Of a stretch of 64,000 nt of DNA, positions 45,858 to 54,624 are shown piece after piece. The notes under the pieces are model-generated. The model was not told the DNA's origin. It ran no database searches and saw nothing but the letters and a program-made list of their open reading frames with translations. The first letter of the stretch is position 1. The number at the start of each line of letters is the position of its first letter. The DNA comes from Escherichia phage FL33. The position numbers and the translations under genes were made by a program. Where the stretch lies: sequence record PP400788; one strand, 5' to 3'.

Positions 45858-46115
45858 TTATTCCTTAATTCCTAGTACTTGTTTAAAAGTCTCGTCGTAA
45901 TCAAGACTTTGGCCCGTTTGTTCTTTATGTTTGTATATAATATCACTTACTTCTGATAGCATATTTTTATATGAACGAGTTAAAGCAGATTTAAGCACGC
46001 TATATCTATCAGGAAATTTACCATGTTCATTATAATAAGCTATTGCTAATTCACGGACTGCTTTTTCAGCAATCTCCATATATTCTTTACGCTTTGTCAT
46101 TTTCTTCTCGGTCAA
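45858..46115 (-). CDS. hypothetical protein, 85 aa
   Basis: ORF. Confidence 0.5.
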
Positions 46116-46401
46116 ATCGGTGTTTACAATGGCGGCATTTATAACGAAGATTACTAGTCTGCCAATGAACTAATTGTACCTGTTCAGTACCGCATTCAGG
46201 ACAATTAGGAACGTTTTTAGAAGCACGTTCGCGGCGTTCAACCATGACCATTACAGAATCCCAATTAACAGGAGGGCTATAATCATCACAACCATAAATC
46301 TTTCCACGCATTTCCAGATCGTCTTCTTCACCAGCCATAATAATTTTAATTAGACTAGAATTACTTGAAGCTGCAATGTCTTCTAATAGACGCTTTTTCA
46401 T
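46087..46401 (-). CDS. zinc-ribbon protein, 104 aa
   Basis: CPECG...CRHCKHRF motif. Confidence 0.5.
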
Positions 46402-47327
46402 TTCAATACCTCAATAGCATTACGTAAACCATTTGCTTTTGCATTAAGAGCTTTTAACAATTTGGTGTGTTCTGCAATTTGGGCTTCAACTTCAATCAAA
46501 CGAGCATTGAGATATTCACGTTCTTCGCTCAAGTTATCAACCTTTTCTACTTTAGGTTCTTTTACAACTGGCTTATACGTATTAGGATTCTTCAGTTTAA
46601 TTAGAATGCGTGAACTGTATAACATTGAACCATTATCTTCGGTTTCATCATACATTTCTACTACGTCCATGATTTTTAACATCATGCGAAGTTTATAAGA
46701 CAACGAACGAATAGTTTTGTTGTGCTTATTAATTTCTTTAGCTGTCATGGTGCCGAGATTACGTGAGTAATAATAAGGAACCTGGATATTAATTAACACT
46801 GATGAACCACCTGGCTTGTGTGTTACTTCATCAGCAATAACCCAGTCCTTAACATGAACTGTATTTGTACGGTCATCGCCCATGGTAAACAGTTTGCGAG
46901 CATGCTTAAAAAGCATATTCACTTGAGTATTGAATTGACAAGCAAATTTATCAGCAAATTTAGTTTCAGGAATGGTAGATAACCAATCAGCCAAATGGGT
47001 CTTTTTAACATCGTTAATAATAGTAAATTCAACCAAATCGGTTATAGATGTCGCAGATTTAATGAAGCTCGGCTTCATAAAGTTTTTAATGTTATCACGA
47101 GCTACAGTAGAAGATAACATACGAGAACGTTTAAACCATTCAAGCAAATTGCCTAACGAATGAGAATAAGCGTTTTGAGTATCTTTACAGATATGATTTT
47201 CCTGGCCAACATATTGAAGGAAATCACGAAGAATATTATTGATTACTGCTCTGTGTCCGATCTGATAATTACGGTGTTTAGTAATAAGACTGTCAAAATA
47301 ATCAATATAATGTTTACGAGTTTTCAT
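46398..47327 (-). CDS. coiled-coil paralog family member A, 309 aa
   Basis: C-terminal heptad-like leucine-rich tail; shares middle motif with next three ORFs. Confidence 0.6.
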   Translation of the reverse strand: MKTRKHYIDYFDSLITKHRNYQIGHRAVINNILRDFLQYVGQENHICKDTQNAYSHSLGNLLEWFKRSRMLSSTVARDNIKNFMKPSFIKSATSITDLVEFTIINDVKKTHLADWLSTIPETKFADKFACQFNTQVNMLFKHARKLFTMGDDRTNTVHVKDWVIADEVTHKPGGSSVLINIQVPYYYSRNLGTMTAKEINKHNKTIRSLSYKLRMMLKIMDVVEMYDETEDNGSMLYSSRILIKLKNPNTYKPVVKEPKVEKVDNLSEEREYLNARLIEVEAQIAEHTKLLKALNAKANGLRNAIEVLK

Positions 47328-47378
47328 GTTCTTCTCACTTATTAATGATTTATACTCCGAGCCATCCTTGGCTTTAAA

Positions 47379-48380
47379 TTACTTAATTAACTGTAAAGCT
47401 TGTTCAAGACGATCCAAGCGATTAACAGATTCTTCCCAAATCCTTTTAGCCTGCTCATATTCTTTCTGCGCTTTATTAGAAATTTCTAGAACTTCTTTAT
47501 AAGCTTTTTCTAGTGCAATAACTTCTGGACGAATTTCTACCGATTCACCTGAATCGTCAAGACATTCCATTAGTTCCTCAAGGGTAGTTTCTTCTTTAGG
47601 AGTATTCACAATTTCATCACATTTTTGTTGGTAAATTTCTTTATCAGTAGGTGAGTACGCACACTTTACTTCACGAAGACTAATTACGAGTTTATATCCT
47701 TCCCAGCCGCATATATTCTTAAAAGGATATGTATGAATATTTTCTACTGTTTCCATACAAAGTAATGCGGTCTCTAATTGACGAGTTATAGTGCTAGCAA
47801 TTGAGAAAAATTTATTAATATTCTTTTGGTTAGTTTCTGGTGTAAAAAATCCATAATTCACAAAAATAGCTACTTTATTTTTATCAAGTTCATATTCTTT
47901 TATGATAATCATATCAGAAGCCAAAGGATGAATTTGACGATAATCGCCATAACATAATTTAGAAGCTGATTTTAGAATTTGCTTCTTAAAAAGTCTGAAA
48001 TTACTAATCCAACGACGAGTAAAAATATTCTCAGGGTCTTCTTTGACAGTAAGATGATAAGAATTAACATCACCGAACCAATTATATCCTACTACATCTT
48101 TGGTTCGTTTAATTTCTTTCCCAAAATTACCAAGAATATCCCGATTAACCAAATATGAAAGAAGACGAGACTCTTTAAAGGTTTTCTTGATAACATCTTT
48201 ATCTACACGGCTAGAAATTTTACGAATTTCATGAATAAATTTAGTAGAAGAAACAATACTTGCATCAACACTATTGAGCCATTGATTGATAATAGAAAGA
48301 ACGCTATTTTGGCCAAACACTGGTATAGCTTTATCATCAATAACACTATTGAATGATTTGATATATTCGTTACGAGTCAT
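47379..48380 (-). CDS. coiled-coil paralog family member B, about 333 aa
   Basis: Start moved to MTRNEY because promoter -10 overlaps the track ATG at 48410; W..F..LF.KQILKSASKL motif. Confidence 0.55.
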   Translation of the reverse strand: MTRNEYIKSFNSVIDDKAIPVFGQNSVLSIINQWLNSVDASIVSSTKFIHEIRKISSRVDKDVIKKTFKESRLLSYLVNRDILGNFGKEIKRTKDVVGYNWFGDVNSYHLTVKEDPENIFTRRWISNFRLFKKQILKSASKLCYGDYRQIHPLASDMIIIKEYELDKNKVAIFVNYGFFTPETNQKNINKFFSIASTITRQLETALLCMETVENIHTYPFKNICGWEGYKLVISLREVKCAYSPTDKEIYQQKCDEIVNTPKEETTLEELMECLDDSGESVEIRPEVIALEKAYKEVLEISNKAQKEYEQAKRIWEESVNRLDRLEQALQLIK

Positions 48381-48408
48381 ATTAATCTCCTCAGTAGAAA
48401 GTAAGAAC

Positions 48409-48438
48409 ATTATACCACATCCGTGTGGTAAAGTAAAC
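48409..48438 (-). promoter_or_regulatory. T4-type early promoter
   Basis: GTTTAC 48433-48438, TGTGGTATAAT -10. Confidence 0.55.
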
Positions 48439-49466
48439 TAGTTCAGTGCATTTAGTGCATTGTTCAGTTTAGAACGTTGCTTCGTGAGATTTTTGACTTT
48501 TTCTTGAGCTTTTTCTAGCATCTTTTCAGCTTCTAACACTTCATTAGTTGCTTTAACGAGTTCATCATCTACTGCTTTAAGAGACTCCTCAATCGCATCT
48601 GCATGCCATTTTTCAACAGGTTTAAGACTCGGATTTTCAATAGGAAGAAAATTCACTTTATTGAATTTCCATGCATCTTTATTACCTGAACTATACATCC
48701 AAAATTTAGGATCGTTTGATGAGTAATTGGATAAATTTAAATTTAAGTTATCTTGCACTTCCTGCTTTTTCTCTTGCGTGACTTCGTCCTTTCTTAAAAA
48801 ATCGTATTTAAATGAAACGATCATATCAAGTTCATATGTTGTTGTGTCTAATTTAAATCGTTCGAAATGCTTTGAAATCTTAGACTGAACACCAGCAACA
48901 ACATCCATATACTTAAATGCTTCTGTCAACTGTGATTTAAGGCATTCACAAATTGAAAGAGAATTTTTTGTATTAGGTTTAAAGCTAATTCGTGCGGTTC
49001 TATTATTTTCTTTTAATGGTCTTACTTCCATCTGAAGAGTATAACCATCAAATTTCAGATTCTTTAAGTTAATTTCAGAACCTTTTAATCGACTCGCAGT
49101 TGATAAAATTTGCTTTAATTGTCTACGGAACAGAGCAATAAATCTCCATTCAATACGATAATGATTTGGATTGAAAAATCCAGATGATAAATTGACCTTA
49201 CTTTGACCAACGCCTTGAACAAATAGAGGATTTTTATAATCAATAGTTTTACAGAAATCGGTGAGCTGCTCACGAGCAGTCATTTGCGTAATATACCCTG
49301 CTTTACTAAAATTACGCACCCATTCACTGCTATTCAGATATTTAAAGTGATGAATAGCACGATTAACTTTATCAAAGTCTAAATTATTTTCACACAAAAA
49401 TGTCATAACATCACGAGTATCGCTAGCGTTACGAACCATATCTTCAATTTGAGAACGAGTTTTCAT
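48438..49466 (-). CDS. coiled-coil paralog family member C, 342 aa
   Basis: W..F..LFRRQLKQILSTASRL motif; C-terminal coiled coil. Confidence 0.6.
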   Translation of the reverse strand: MKTRSQIEDMVRNASDTRDVMTFLCENNLDFDKVNRAIHHFKYLNSSEWVRNFSKAGYITQMTAREQLTDFCKTIDYKNPLFVQGVGQSKVNLSSGFFNPNHYRIEWRFIALFRRQLKQILSTASRLKGSEINLKNLKFDGYTLQMEVRPLKENNRTARISFKPNTKNSLSICECLKSQLTEAFKYMDVVAGVQSKISKHFERFKLDTTTYELDMIVSFKYDFLRKDEVTQEKKQEVQDNLNLNLSNYSSNDPKFWMYSSGNKDAWKFNKVNFLPIENPSLKPVEKWHADAIEESLKAVDDELVKATNEVLEAEKMLEKAQEKVKNLTKQRSKLNNALNALN

Positions 49467-49474
49467 AGTGTTCC

Positions 49475-50401
49475 TTAAGATTTAAGTAAATCAACAATTT
49501 TAATTAACTTTTCACGCTCAGATTTAGCTTTACTACTCAATCCAGATAGTCTGAAAATTTCATCGTCATATTGTTGAATAGAAATATTCAGCTCTTCAAT
49601 CTGTTTATTAAAATAATCAATTTGTTCAGAATGTTTTTCGTTACTACGAACTGGTACAGGTTTCGTAGGCAATTTAGTTGAACTGGATTCATCCGGGCGA
49701 TAAATTAAAATACAACTTGAACCAATAGGGCATTTTGCACCAGATGAATATTCTAATGTTCCAGCTTCTTTTAAAACTTCAAAAGCCAAACAGAGATGAT
49801 GCCCCATATTAACATAATCTGTAGAGCGAGCTCTGATGTAATAATCATCTCCACGAATACTAAATTTAAAGCATTTAAGGTCTTCTGTATTATTGGTCTT
49901 AAAAATCATTTGTTTATCTAGACCTTTAGCTAATCGAGCGCCTAATGCTAATAATCGTCGTTGATTTTCCCACAAATCCGCTATCATTTGATCGAATGAT
50001 AATTTCGGCATTAGTCGACCATAAAGGTCATATCCTTTATTATAATTACGAAGGATTTCACTCGCATTAATACGAGACAACGCTCCAATTTTATTAAGGG
50101 CTTTCATAATGCGATTAGATAAACTCATTCCAGACCCATTTGTTCGCTGTAAATGTTTTTCTAATCCAAAGCCAATATCAACTTTAAACTTATCTAAAAT
50201 TTCGGCATGAACATCTCTGTCAATAACATTCAAATCCAAAGTTGGGTTAAATCTATGAAAAAATTTATCTGGCTCTCCACGACGAAATACAGTCCATTCA
50301 TTCATCATTTTTTTATTAACTAAAGATTTAATTACTGCATTGACATTATTAATTACGACTGACATATTTTCCTCACTCAATTTCAATTTTACTAAATACA
50401 C
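49475..50401 (-). CDS. coiled-coil paralog family member D, 308 aa
   Basis: LWENQRRLLALGARLAKGL motif; C-terminal coiled coil; start may be internal. Confidence 0.55.
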   Translation of the reverse strand: MYLVKLKLSEENMSVVINNVNAVIKSLVNKKMMNEWTVFRRGEPDKFFHRFNPTLDLNVIDRDVHAEILDKFKVDIGFGLEKHLQRTNGSGMSLSNRIMKALNKIGALSRINASEILRNYNKGYDLYGRLMPKLSFDQMIADLWENQRRLLALGARLAKGLDKQMIFKTNNTEDLKCFKFSIRGDDYYIRARSTDYVNMGHHLCLAFEVLKEAGTLEYSSGAKCPIGSSCILIYRPDESSSTKLPTKPVPVRSNEKHSEQIDYFNKQIEELNISIQQYDDEIFRLSGLSSKAKSEREKLIKIVDLLKS

Positions 50402-50780
50402 AGAATATGATTGAACAGACTACATAAGCACCGCACACAGATTGAACTAATACCATTCCAAAGAACCAAACAATATTATCAAACAGTGTCTGTTTTACGT
50501 CGAAAGGACGTAAACTTACAGTAATATTATCACCTTTTTCTATTGAAGAATACATCTCTGGGGAAATATATTCACTAAATCTATAACCGTCTTTAAGTTC
50601 ATATACGGCAATAAACGATAAACTAGACCCCTTTCCTTGTGTTCCTGTAATGGTATTAACTACAGTAACATCATAATCTTTATAGTGCATATAATCATTA
50701 ATAGCATAATAACCGTATGCAACTACTACACATAAACAACATATCAATAAATTCAATCTTTTAATTATCAACTGTTTCAT
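50373..50780 (-). CDS. membrane protein, 135 aa
   Basis: Two hydrophobic segments at the ends. Confidence 0.5.
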   Translation of the reverse strand: MKQLIIKRLNLLICCLCVVVAYGYYAINDYMHYKDYDVTVVNTITGTQGKGSSLSFIAVYELKDGYRFSEYISPEMYSSIEKGDNITVSLRPFDVKQTLFDNIVWFFGMVLVQSVCGAYVVCSIIFCVFSKIEIE

Positions 50781-50809
50781 AATAATCTCAATTAAAAGGG
50801 CTTAGAACC

Positions 50810-50839
50810 ATTATACCATCCTTGGTATAAAGCGGTTAT
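50810..50839 (-). promoter_or_regulatory. early-promoter-like element (TGGTATAAT -10, weak -35)
   Basis: Extended -10 in minus sense; -35 is CTTTAT. Confidence 0.35.
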
Positions 50840-51363
50840 GCGAGTACCGTCTTTAACCGTTCTTCAAACTTCCGAAGAGTATTTTGGCGTTCAGCTCTTT
50901 GCTTTTTGTAAGTTTCAATACGCTCTGAAATGAGAGAGTATCGTTCATTTACTGATTCTTTCATAAAATCAGGAATTTCACGAGAAGCTTTAATCTCATC
51001 AAATTTATCAATAACAGCTTGCTCTTCAGCAATTAAGTTATCATACATTAAAATATCTTTCTTGATGAACTCAATATCTTCTTGAGTTACACGAGATAAT
51101 TTAGATACTTTATCCTTTTTGTACTGTTCGTTAGTATCACGAGACCAGTGCAATGTACGATTTTTATTCGTATTCTTGTAAATTTCTACAATACCAATCT
51201 CATCGATAATAACGATCCAATTCCAACGGGATTTGTAAATTTGTCCTCCATCAACAGTGATTTCACCTCCGATTGAGATGTCATTAAAGAACTTACTTTG
51301 TGCTTCAGATTTAAATTTACCATCGTTGTAATTTACCAAGTTGAAAATATCTTTAGCGTTCAT
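50836..51363 (-). CDS. hypothetical protein, 175 aa, C-terminal coiled coil
   Basis: ORF downstream of early promoter 51392-51421. Confidence 0.55.
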   Translation of the reverse strand: MNAKDIFNLVNYNDGKFKSEAQSKFFNDISIGGEITVDGGQIYKSRWNWIVIIDEIGIVEIYKNTNKNRTLHWSRDTNEQYKKDKVSKLSRVTQEDIEFIKKDILMYDNLIAEEQAVIDKFDEIKASREIPDFMKESVNERYSLISERIETYKKQRAERQNTLRKFEERLKTVLA

Positions 51364-51808: not shown

Positions 51809-52528
51809 TTAGGATTCTTCTAAATGTCTTTTCTGAAAAGTTGATACCATACTACGATACGGTTCATTTGGATATCCATGTTTTATAGCTTCCTTTGTAA
51901 ATTTTCTCCATCCACATTTAGTTTCTTTCCAAAGCTCGAATAATTCATCTTCATACTGCCATATAGTTAAATGAGAACGCTTTGCAGCTTTAATTCCATT
52001 AATATGCTTTTCTTTTACTACAGGATTGCTTAGTTTCTTTTTAATAATATTACTAACTTTTCTAACAAAAACTGGGTCCTTATATCGTTGCGAAGTTTTT
52101 ATTGAAGTGTTTAATTTAGCTTCCGGCGTGGATGTGACCTCTTTCATCTTTTTCTTCATATGCTGTATATGATTAGGATTTTTCCATAAATTTATAGAAT
52201 GCTTTTTGCATTTTATCCTAGTTTCATCTGCAACCTTTCCTCCTTCACCCCCGTATGACAGGTTAACGCAGTTTTTTCCATATTTCAATTTACCTGCCAT
52301 GATATATAATATTTCGGCTTGTACCATTTTATCATAATTATCAAAAACTTCTAAAACCGTTTTTGATAATATATGGTCATTTGACACTTTTACACGTTCT
52401 ATATAATTTCCACTACCAACATACGAATCATTGATGTTATTAGTTATATGTCGACCATAATAGTATTTCTTAATACCTGTCTTTAAATTTAATATTTCAG
52501 TTTTATAGATAGTAAAATATTTTTTCAT
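51809..52528 (-). mobile_element. Seg-like GIY-YIG homing endonuclease gene, 239 aa
   Basis: TIYKTEILNLKTGIKKYYYGRH ... YVGSG motif arrangement as in T4 Seg proteins; stop overlaps neighbour start. Confidence 0.55.
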
Positions 52529-53505
52529 TTTAATAATACCGTTTCAGCAATTTCTTCCCAACCGTTTTTGTCGGTCATAATAAAGTCAGCAAGATAAAGA
52601 GCAGTACGCAGTGAAACATTGCGTAAACGATTAACATTAACTTTCATCCATGATAATGCTTTATAAGTTTCTTCATCAGAAAGACCGCGCTTTTGCATCA
52701 TGTCAGTTGAAAGAATAACATCTTCAACCCTGACCATAATTTCTTCATTGGTGTGAACACCCAAATCCAAATAAACTGAGCGGGACACTAATGCTTGTAA
52801 GTGTGGGGCAAGTTTAGTACCACGGTCTAATTCGCGGTCAATATCAACGTTTGTGATAAAAACAATCGTTCCTTTAAATTCAAACTCACGGTCAATGCCT
52901 TTTTCTTCTAAGTAAGAAGATGCAGTGCTCCAGCAGACTTTACGGGTCTCTCCAGTGTCCAGAGCGGCTTTTAGAAGATTAAGAATATCCATATCAGAGA
53001 AAACATCCACATCATCAATCAAAAGGACAGAATTCTCTTCACGATTATTCCAAAGCTGCTCATAAAGACCAATACCAGAGATTTTACCATTAATGCTTTT
53101 ATATTCAATGTATCCAATATCATTTGCTTTATTTAAAGCTTTATCTAAAGAATACGTTTTACCAATACCTGCTGCGCCAGAGATAATTAATGAACGAATA
53201 TTTCCATTAATAATACCATTCGTCATCATTCCCATAACATTAAATCTTTTATTAATGCGGGTTTTCATATCTTCATATGATTCTTTAACTTCTTCAACTT
53301 TTACACCATCATATGAAATATCTGATTTGTAAACCCAAACACCACGACGTTTACCGTCAATTTCAACAAAAACTTTACCATCTCCTTGTGCATCTACCGG
53401 AGCATTATCTGGGAACCATTCGCCTAAGAGCTCAAAAGTTCCAGAGATTTCTTTACCGAAGTAGATACCCTTATTGATAGTTACAGTTTTCATTTTATTC
53501 TCCAA
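52525..53505 (-). CDS. P-loop ATPase (AAA-like), 326 aa
   Basis: Walker A GAAGIGKTY, Walker B VLLIDDVD. Confidence 0.6.
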   Translation of the reverse strand: MENKMKTVTINKGIYFGKEISGTFELLGEWFPDNAPVDAQGDGKVFVEIDGKRRGVWVYKSDISYDGVKVEEVKESYEDMKTRINKRFNVMGMMTNGIINGNIRSLIISGAAGIGKTYSLDKALNKANDIGYIEYKSINGKISGIGLYEQLWNNREENSVLLIDDVDVFSDMDILNLLKAALDTGETRKVCWSTASSYLEEKGIDREFEFKGTIVFITNVDIDRELDRGTKLAPHLQALVSRSVYLDLGVHTNEEIMVRVEDVILSTDMMQKRGLSDEETYKALSWMKVNVNRLRNVSLRTALYLADFIMTDKNGWEEIAETVLLK

Positions 53506-53610: not shown

Positions 53611-54624
53611 TCATTTATAATAACTTCGGTGGTTTTCAAGATAAACCCTCTCAAGGAAGTCATCCCAGAAACTCATGTCTACTTTTTGCTGCATACCGTT
53701 CTTAGAAGCTTCAATGGATGCTGCTTCTACTTGATCGACCACATCTTCCAAAAACTCTTGGACAGTTTTAAATGGATGTTTACCCAACTTCACGTCGAGA
53801 ATAAATGGAGCATCTTGGAGTGGATAAACCAAATCACCAGTTTTGTAAATTTCCAATAGTTGGAGTCCACCACGGCAAGCATGACTAAGAGCTTTCCAGT
53901 CAATGCCCTCATTCGCTTCAGCCTTACGAGCACGTTCGCCGTATTCAGCATCTAATTTGTTCAGTGACTGCTTAAGCTCAATAAGAGAAAGCGTTGTCTG
54001 ATATTTACGACCCAACACAGTATAGAACGTTTGCGGGCCTGTTTTCTCGTGATTATGGAACACCCATTCACAGAACTCGTTCTCTGGAAGACGATGCTTA
54101 ATATCTTCAACTTTAGTGCGACGCTGCTTAATGGAACCGTCTTCTTGATAATCAACCCACTGATCGGGGATTTGATTAACTACTTTCAATACATCACGCA
54201 ATGCGGCCAAACGAGAACCCTTAACACCATATTTAGAAGCTTGCTTGCGAACATATCCTAAATAGGATTTCATGTTAGTTGTATAAAAACGAGAACGATT
54301 GTCTTGAATAAACTTCCATACATCAGGCAAATCTGATTTAACTACCAGTTCAGGTGGAGTATGGAGCATATCCAATGCTACGGTTTCACCATCTGCTGCT
54401 AATTTAAAGAAATATTTAAGACTGTATAGTTCATGGTCAATATCATCTTTAGTGTTTTTAGATGATGTGTTGTTAGTGTTTTTACTCATATGCTCTTTAA
54501 CATTTCCGATAAGAATATCGCGAGCAGGAGGAACAAAGATTTCTTTAAAATCTACATCAGATTCTGGAGTAGAAGTTCCATAAAGATGACTACCAAAATA
54601 GCTTTTCATTACTGTTTTCATCAT
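53611..54624 (-). CDS. pol-beta-superfamily nucleotidyltransferase, 337 aa
   Basis: N-terminal GS-x10-DVD motif (YFGSHLYGTSTPESDVDF) and downstream LDML acidic strand. Confidence 0.55.
   Translation of the reverse strand: MMKTVMKSYFGSHLYGTSTPESDVDFKEIFVPPARDILIGNVKEHMSKNTNNTSSKNTKDDIDHELYSLKYFFKLAADGETVALDMLHTPPELVVKSDLPDVWKFIQDNRSRFYTTNMKSYLGYVRKQASKYGVKGSRLAALRDVLKVVNQIPDQWVDYQEDGSIKQRRTKVEDIKHRLPENEFCEWVFHNHEKTGPQTFYTVLGRKYQTTLSLIELKQSLNKLDAEYGERARKAEANEGIDWKALSHACRGGLQLLEIYKTGDLVYPLQDAPFILDVKLGKHPFKTVQEFLEDVVDQVEAASIEASKNGMQQKVDMSFWDDFLERVYLENHRSYYK

Follow-up and report, generated by a model that had tools for sequence, protein, structure and literature searches.

Gene nrdC.5 of phage T4 has been described by Srikant, Guegler and Laub (eLife 2022; PMC9391042) as a counter-defence gene against Dsr1, a sirtuin defence that depletes nicotinamide adenine dinucleotide (NAD): supplied from a plasmid, it neutralises this defence and lets a T4 deletion clone plate again on E. 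coli with the dsr1 of ECOR17. The T4 orthologue is also described as an early gene. According to a later report (PMC13581612), Dsr1 itself detects the major capsid proteins of phages by means of a sensor domain in common with Avs7, and this capsid-protein sensor occurs in fusion with at least 20 types of effector. The locus dealt with here belongs to Escherichia phage FL33 and was analysed in a stretch of 64,000 nucleotides (record PP400788; hereafter the window), where the nrdC.5 orthologue stands in a tandem array of four minus-strand genes, nrdC.3, nrdC.4, nrdC.5 and nrdC.6, which are true paralogues diverged from one ancestral gene.

A comparable task is ascribed to DSAD1, a phage protein described (PMC10973363, PMC11087589) as switching off a SIR2 NADase defence in the manner of an inhibitor rather than of an enzyme; it comes from another phage group and its target is DSR2 rather than Dsr1, the likeness being one of description only, with no kinship claimed. 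The T4 internal proteins IPI, IPII and IPIII, together with Bas37_0260, are in turn presented as an accessory anti-defence set of T-even phages that has one short conserved module in common, the remainder differing from protein to protein and setting the target. Their common module is an N-terminal capsid-targeting signal, and the proteins are injected with the DNA, whereas members of the nrdC family have a core and a C-terminal helix in common and give no sign of being packaged.

Between positions 46398 and 51363 the window shows 100% identity to Escherichia phage FL34, and this region is matched by 740 T4-like phage records; the source of the window is a Tequatrovirus. Named by comparison with the annotated T4 genome, the quartet of minus-strand open reading frames (ORFs) comprises nrdC.3 (46398..47327; 309 amino acids, aa), a non-T4 allele with 61% identity to T4 nrdC.3, against 90-99% identity to T4 for the genes that flank it; nrdC.4 (47379..48380; 333 aa; 97% identity to T4); nrdC.5 (48438..49466; 342 aa; 93.3% identity over 342 aa); and nrdC.6 (49475..50365; 296 aa from its ATG), the most divergent member, with 98.6% identity to the 296-aa T4 form. 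The orthology of nrdC.5 follows from this 93% identity, from its position between nrdC.4 and nrdC.6, as in T4, and from a full-length match to the Pfam family PF23882 (DUF7235), which covers residues 1-342 with 412.7 bits for a cut-off of 30; the window protein differs at 23 positions from the T4 protein for which the Dsr1 rescue was demonstrated (PMC9391042). In contrast, nrdC.3, nrdC.4 and nrdC.6 have no DUF7235 match at expectation values (E) of up to 1, are less than 25% identical to nrdC.5 and show nothing that points to Dsr1. The reagent list of the Dsr1 study names no other paralogue (PMC9391042).

Four paralogues of one ancestral gene

Direct BLASTP comparison of the ORFs is significant for the pair nrdC.3/nrdC.4 only (26% over 204 aa, E 1e-7), the other five of the six pairs lying at noise level, and in the PHROGs collection family 1435 takes in both nrdC.3 and nrdC.4, whereas nrdC.5 and nrdC.6 each have a family of their own. 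The families returned by homologue searches are narrow and do not reach beyond the T4-like phages of enterobacteria, and hhalign on these shallow alignments gives probabilities of 0.5-10% between families. The informative comparisons are those made after adding divergent copies from related loci, including loci of the Dhakavirus/Gaprivervirus type (genus inferred), where three members are present, among them a very divergent nrdC.5-like copy that word-based search had missed. With the alignments thus enlarged, the nrdC.3 and nrdC.4 families are joined with a probability of 97.7 (E 1.7e-12), and those of nrdC.4 and nrdC.5 with a probability of 65 (E 5.9e-5) over 234 collinear columns. Compared directly with the other families, nrdC.6 gives weak values (E 0.004-0.04), with E 0.02-0.6 for three unrelated neighbouring families.

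When a combined nrdC.3/nrdC.4/nrdC.5 profile was run exhaustively with HMMER against 1.84 billion representative proteins, it matched only 18, among them three new full-length members (P0227, P0236 and P0238), two of which are intermediates: P0236 and P0238 are each matched by several family profiles, and P0238 by all four. These proteins and their relatives are encoded by single-copy genes (309-338 aa) directly upstream of nrdC.2, in genomes of Kanagawavirus (IME523, PEi20 and Kosakonia 305), Mosugukvirus PM2, Marfavirus and Jiaodavirus KP1. In local searches, the IME523 protein is matched by the nrdC.6 (E 1.3e-6) and nrdC.5 (E 5.9e-5) profiles, and the Marfa protein by those of nrdC.5 (E 1.7e-8) and nrdC.4 (E 5.9e-7). 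A bridge profile made of the single-copy proteins is linked by hhalign to every member of the array, with a probability of 94.8 for nrdC.3 (E 5e-8), 97.9 for nrdC.4 (E 6.4e-13), 97.8 for nrdC.5 (E 1e-12) and 96.3 for nrdC.6 (E 1.8e-9), whereas unrelated neighbouring families used as controls stay at E 0.18-0.35. Taken separately, the Kanagawavirus/PM2 subset matches nrdC.6 with a probability of 96 (E 4.7e-9) over 244 columns. The single-copy proteins belong to the same superfamily as the array proteins, with which they have in common their length, their genomic slot and a C-terminal tail of the form R.KL..AL.LLK; they differ in being present once per genome instead of three or four times, and all of them are uncharacterised.

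It could be argued that the resemblance comes from a similar composition (helical, lysine- and glutamate-rich C-termini encoded by AT-rich phage genes) without any shared ancestry, and both the five blank BLASTP pairs and the weak direct comparisons of nrdC.6 would fit such an origin. Cutting the last 65 residues from every sequence, however, leaves the bridge profile linked to nrdC.3 (E 3e-5), nrdC.4 (E 1.7e-11), nrdC.5 (E 1.3e-7) and nrdC.6 (E 4.1e-6), with controls at E 0.23-0.24, so that the shared similarity is not a coiled-coil artefact. Moreover, the alignments are collinear across 130-240 columns, the predicted secondary structures of nrdC.5 and nrdC.6 agree, and the single-copy homologues occupy the same genomic position, all of which largely refutes a purely compositional origin and makes it very improbable. 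The initial annotation had proposed a diversified tandem family in the nrdC accessory region, which the profile comparisons bear out for all four genes and pairwise alignment for nrdC.3/nrdC.4 alone. A literature search brought up no paper in which nrdC.3, nrdC.4, nrdC.5 and nrdC.6 are grouped as a single family.

Two further ORFs were considered at the borders of the family. One is a conserved ORF of about 257 aa that lies upstream of the single-copy genes; it was tried as an extra member and rejected. In the case of Acinetobacter phage Acj9, p122 (L025 36836-37813, 325 aa) lies in the same slot, upstream of gene 49, and carries a motif like SR...A...L..FG and a long C-terminal helix; it is apparently E5EPQ6, of equal length, which is matched by the nrdC.6 model in Foldseek (E 3e-5). 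Sequence profiles give no confirmation of its membership (E 0.019), and p122 is probably a distant member of the family.

Expansion, alleles and predicted fold

Several genera have a single copy per genome, the Dhakavirus/Gaprivervirus-type loci carry three copies and Tequatrovirus has four, a history of 1, then 3, then 4 copies that corresponds to a lineage-specific expansion. The newest duplicate is nrdC.3, derived from its sister nrdC.4, and each of the four families is conserved across genera. Among six Tequatrovirus loci, the ratio of nonsynonymous to synonymous divergence (dN/dS) is 0.14-0.29 for the four genes and 0.01-0.13 for most of their neighbours, with nrdC.2 and nrdC.7 (0.25-0.29) as exceptions among the latter.

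Variation is most conspicuous in the middle of nrdC.3 (residues 61-270, 46518..47147, minus strand), which comprises the central helix and the beta-alpha-beta core. In consecutive blocks of 30 aa, the identity between the window and T4 proteins is 90 and 87%, then 67-43%, and then 77 and 100%, and this middle shows a dN of 0.42 and a saturated dS of 1.43, with dS values of 0.64-0.71 at the ends. Across 653 phage records, nrdC.3 falls into three clearly distinct allele classes within one genus, about 95%, 75-79% or 60% identical to the window copy; judged from these sequences, the alleles look as if the ends were conserved and the middle swapped like an exchanged cassette. The initial annotation had placed the divergence of the family in the N-terminal halves, but the middle of the protein varies at least as much.

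The diversification of the array is seen as changes in copy number, as old divergent nrdC.3 alleles and as recombinant forms, the rearranged sequences being P0119, P0121, P0235 and L005 8950-9982. A natural fusion, nrdC.5(146-274)::nrdC.3(129-309), deletes nrdC.4, which in one Tequatrovirus locus is split into two ORFs. The nrdC.6 of phage Sf25 contains an internal duplication of residues 177-258. Finally, P0235 (173 aa) joins an unrelated N-terminus of 120 aa to the C-terminal helix of nrdC.5, and it may be an assembly artefact, since this N-terminus was found in no complete phage genome.

As for the proteins themselves, a shared central motif had been pointed out in the initial annotation, and it does recur throughout: a conserved helix motif is found in nrdC.4 (RRWISNFRLFKKQILKSASKL; 47955..48017, minus strand), aligned across all families, and in nrdC.5 (EWRFIALFRRQLKQILSTASRL; residues 104-126; 49089..49157, minus strand), where the AlphaFold helix and the motif alignment coincide, with variants in nrdC.3 and nrdC.6. 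Upstream of it lies a second common motif, SR.LS...A...L..FGK. AlphaFold models, independent of each other, cover nrdC.5 and nrdC.6. That of nrdC.6 is usable (predicted local distance difference test score, pLDDT, 76; predicted template-modelling score, pTM, 0.65) and begins with a helical N-terminal part and the helix of the central motif, continues with two pairs of strands separated by a helix, and ends, after a low-confidence linker, in two C-terminal helices. The model of nrdC.5 is poor overall (pLDDT 53); from the central helix on, its elements come in the same order as those of nrdC.6. Over 249 columns of a 20-sequence alignment, the secondary structures of the two models agree with a three-state score (Q3) of 0.68, against a mean of 0.43 and a maximum of 0.57 in shifted controls; as predictions, then, nrdC.5 and nrdC.6 have the same order of secondary-structure elements. 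In Foldseek, the nrdC.6 model matches the single-copy proteins of T4-like phages of Enterobacter, Pectobacterium, Acinetobacter and Yersinia (E 1e-4 to 8e-7).

In the C-terminal region, nrdC.5 is predicted to form a helix of 58 residues (284-341; 48444..48617, minus strand; pLDDT 75-90) with an unbroken pattern of 7.5 heptads, and it is in this part that DUF7235 and the single-copy homologues of Marfavirus and Kanagawavirus match. For nrdC.6, the model shows instead two helices (residues 246-272 and 278-295; 49481..49630, minus strand) with a break at SGLSS. Each protein had been described in the initial annotation as ending in a heptad coiled coil, a claim that stands in part: in a run-length test, the longest run of a/d positions falls within the last 60 residues of all four proteins, but it exceeds shuffled sequences in nrdC.5 only (16 a/d positions, matched in 1 of 500 shuffles), the runs of nrdC.3, nrdC.4 and nrdC.6 reaching 10-11 positions (10 in nrdC.6) with p values of 0.16-0.30. 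A simple heptad score limited to L, I, V and M is significant for none of the proteins.

The superfamily alignment of 20 sequences contains no invariant column, which argues against an enzyme; near-invariance is limited to one proline at the end of the linker and two leucines of the C-terminal tail. DUF7235 for nrdC.5 apart, the proteins match neither a solved structure in the PDB nor a known domain in Pfam, NCBIfam or PADLOC: a search of the PDB sequences with the family profiles gave no match, and PADLOC offered nothing beyond a 14-bit coiled-coil match of nrdC.4 to BrxC. The isoelectric points (pI) of nrdC.3 to nrdC.6 are 9.4, 6.9, 9.2 and 9.2, with net charges from 0 to +12. An acidic DNA mimic of the anti-restriction type (Ocr, ArdA) was also considered, and rejected on these values of pI (6.9-9.4) and charge (0 to +12).

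Putative binders of host immune proteins

The interpretation favoured here, to which a probability of roughly 0.6 is given, is that nrdC.3-nrdC.6 are true paralogues, expanded from a single gene upstream of nrdC.2, that encode stoichiometric binders of host immune proteins. The ancestral single gene lies, in other T4-like genera, directly upstream of nrdC.2, and each paralogue encodes a dispensable protein of about 35-40 kDa; the proteins are mostly basic and lack conserved catalytic residues. Their predicted architecture consists of a helical N-terminal part, a conserved helix packed on a core of two strands, a helix and two strands, a loose and variable linker, and a long amphipathic C-terminal helix. 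Such proteins would act as non-enzymatic inhibitors that bind host immune proteins, with a target specificity set by the variable middle, and the conserved C-terminal helix may serve for oligomerisation or for contact with a common partner. The direct binding, the role of the helix and the anti-defence role of nrdC.3, nrdC.4 and nrdC.6 are inferred, the pairing of nrdC.5 with Dsr1 being the sole one with experimental support, from the T4 orthologue. An anti-defence role, as the initial annotation had suspected, is documented for nrdC.5, while the host-driven selection it had supposed is not seen as gene-wide positive selection.

Several observations weigh against this interpretation. The evidence that connects nrdC.5 with Dsr1 is genetic, comes from one study and is given without a mechanism (PMC9391042). 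The dN/dS values (0.14-0.29), which lie above those of most neighbours yet far below 1, indicate a faster change of the proteins without positive selection across the genes. With regard to the proposed helix, a significant heptad pattern is confined to nrdC.5, whose overall model is poor and gave noise in a BFVD fold search that did not retrieve even its own family. The basic pI of three members (9.2-9.4) would also suit the binding of nucleic acids. Lastly, the main text of a 2025 preprint (10.1101/2025.11.20.689424) on a transposon screen of T4 and Bas37 with several defence systems and clinical strains attributes no phenotype to nrdC.3, nrdC.4 or nrdC.6; Dsr1 is likewise absent from that text.

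The silence of that main text would be expected if nrdC.5 alone were an anti-defence gene and the other three had drifted to host-takeover or housekeeping-accessory roles, or were cheap duplicates in decay. Consistent with this possibility, the paralogues are less than 25% identical to one another, nrdC.4 is split in one Tequatrovirus locus and deleted by a natural fusion, and the nrdC.6 of the T4 reference sequence carries a frameshift. However, most of 465 full-length matches keep the four reading frames unbroken, purifying selection is ongoing, each family is conserved across genera and the surrounding genes are themselves anti-defence, according to the same preprint, so that such a restricted role for nrdC.5, the most serious alternative, is considered rather unlikely. 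A still less probable view takes the four proteins as nucleic-acid-binding regulators, dimeric through their C-terminal helix, that work on the DNA or RNA of host or phage and would overcome Dsr1 by an indirect route, for instance through a change in the expression of its trigger. The net charge of three members (+9 to +12, pI 9.2-9.4) and the helix-turn-like character of the conserved motif SR.LS...A...L..FGK fit this view, as does a weak match of nrdC.3 to the N-terminal, SAM-like DNA-binding domain of tyrosine recombinases (PF02899). This last hint, nevertheless, stays far under the cut-off (13.9 bits versus 22.3), concerns 1 of 20 members and was rejected because it is absent from every other one; moreover, nrdC.4 is neutral in charge.

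Beyond the interpretation as binders of host immune proteins, a bolder and quite doubtful extension of it would regard the array as a matched set of inhibitors, each paralogue being directed against a different host sensor with the domain common to Dsr1 and Avs7, with mixed oligomers formed through the C-terminal helix and a copy number that tracks sensor diversity. If this were true, one mixed particle would cover several immune receptors, and the copy numbers of 1, 3 and 4 would follow the diversity of sensors within the host range of each genus.

The accessory block and its significance

Some details of the array itself concern its reading frames and signals. The four consecutive minus-strand genes listed in the initial annotation are confirmed with 309, 333 and 342 aa, and with 296 instead of 308 aa for the fourth: all nrdC.6 orthologues begin MS[QV][AV]IN at an ATG, which identifies the 308-aa GTG start as an over-extension. 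A 343-aa form of nrdC.4 from an upstream ATG was discarded as an artefact that reads through the ribosome-binding site, its orthologues starting with MTRNEYI. In the T4 reference sequence NC_000866, nrdC.6 (L001 11997-12894) has one A missing at nucleotide 778 (GAGCTG-ATATT versus GAGCTGAATATT), which results in an annotated protein of 275 aa without the C-terminal helices; other T4 records and the window have 296 aa, and the missing A comes either from faulty sequencing or from a mutation in the laboratory stock. In the spacer between nrdC.5 and nrdC.4, a consensus scan marks a promoter-like site, TTTACT-17-TATAAT with a TG (48409..48437, minus strand), which overlaps a short hairpin and is a candidate only, since promoter-like sites are overall no commoner than in shuffled sequences.

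Upstream of the array, on the same strand, nrdC.7 (50373-50780; 135 aa; 90% identity to T4) encodes a predicted membrane protein, and nrdC.8 (50836..51363; 175 aa) is 98% identical to T4 nrdC.8 and 98.3% identical to bas37_0203 of phage KarlGJung (Bas37), in the same 90% cluster. In the transposon-screen preprint (10.1101/2025.11.20.689424), bas37_0203 is reported as an inhibitor of Druantia III and T4 nrdC.1 as an inhibitor of Septu, and nrdC.2 to nrdC.11 are listed as non-essential on laboratory E. coli. The initial annotation had considered none of its genes assignable to a function, which is out of date both for nrdC.5 and for this fifth ORF, and had described the latter as ending in a coiled coil, whereas its best heptad run lies inside the protein and does not exceed those of shuffled sequences. 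As a member of the family nrdC.8 was rejected, with no homology to any of the four paralogue families (hhalign E 0.065-0.38). The window copy of nrdC.1 (45858-46115) is nearly identical to the T4 gene reported as anti-Septu. Both nrdC.1 and nrdC.8 resemble the paralogues in belonging to the same accessory block and in being dispensable on laboratory strains, and they differ from them in having no sequence kinship with the four. The three reported counter-defence genes, nrdC.1, nrdC.5 and nrdC.8, lie within 5.5 kb, and the whole block nrdC.1-nrdC.8 behaves like an anti-defence island, with the four paralogues as its largest component.

At the other end of the array, nrdC.2 (46087-46401) encodes a small zinc-ribbon protein, its start overlapping the stop of nrdC.3, and is unusually variable among Tequatrovirus loci (dN 0.19, lengths of 98-129 aa). 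Its constant position after the last family member in every genus examined (L002-L014) hints at a functional link with the family. Farther away, a 239-aa ORF between nrdC.9 and nrdC.10 (51809-52528), not found at this site in T4 and present in 66 of 501 matching phage records, is annotated in those records as a homing endonuclease and has no Pfam match at E 0.001. The nrdC.10 product (52525-53505) gives weak matches to P-loop/STAND-like ATPases, and that of nrdC.11 (53611-54624) matches the RlaP nucleotidyltransferase family, of an RNA repair pathway; both genes are kept beside the array in all genera looked at.

A last question to be considered is what the array means for the biology of these phages. 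Although T4 is the reference phage, no role is known for most genes in its accessory regions. What the initial annotation observed proves mostly right, and its interpretation leads the right way. The finding extends published knowledge, rather than revealing a new kind of system: the characterised anti-Dsr1 gene is now placed in a paralogous family of four members. Given that the nrdC.5 orthologue counteracts Dsr1, paralogy makes nrdC.3, nrdC.4 and nrdC.6 good candidates for the same kind of job, that is, three concrete candidate counter-defence genes. The array is also a natural experiment in diversification, with duplication, old alleles with a swapped middle and fusions between copies. Moreover, profile searches detected no relative outside T4-like phages, which, together with the lack of a solved-structure match, suggests that the structure of NrdC.5 with Dsr1 would probably reveal a new way of silencing a sirtuin defence. 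Finally, the content of the array could aid the prediction of host range for therapeutic T4-like phages.

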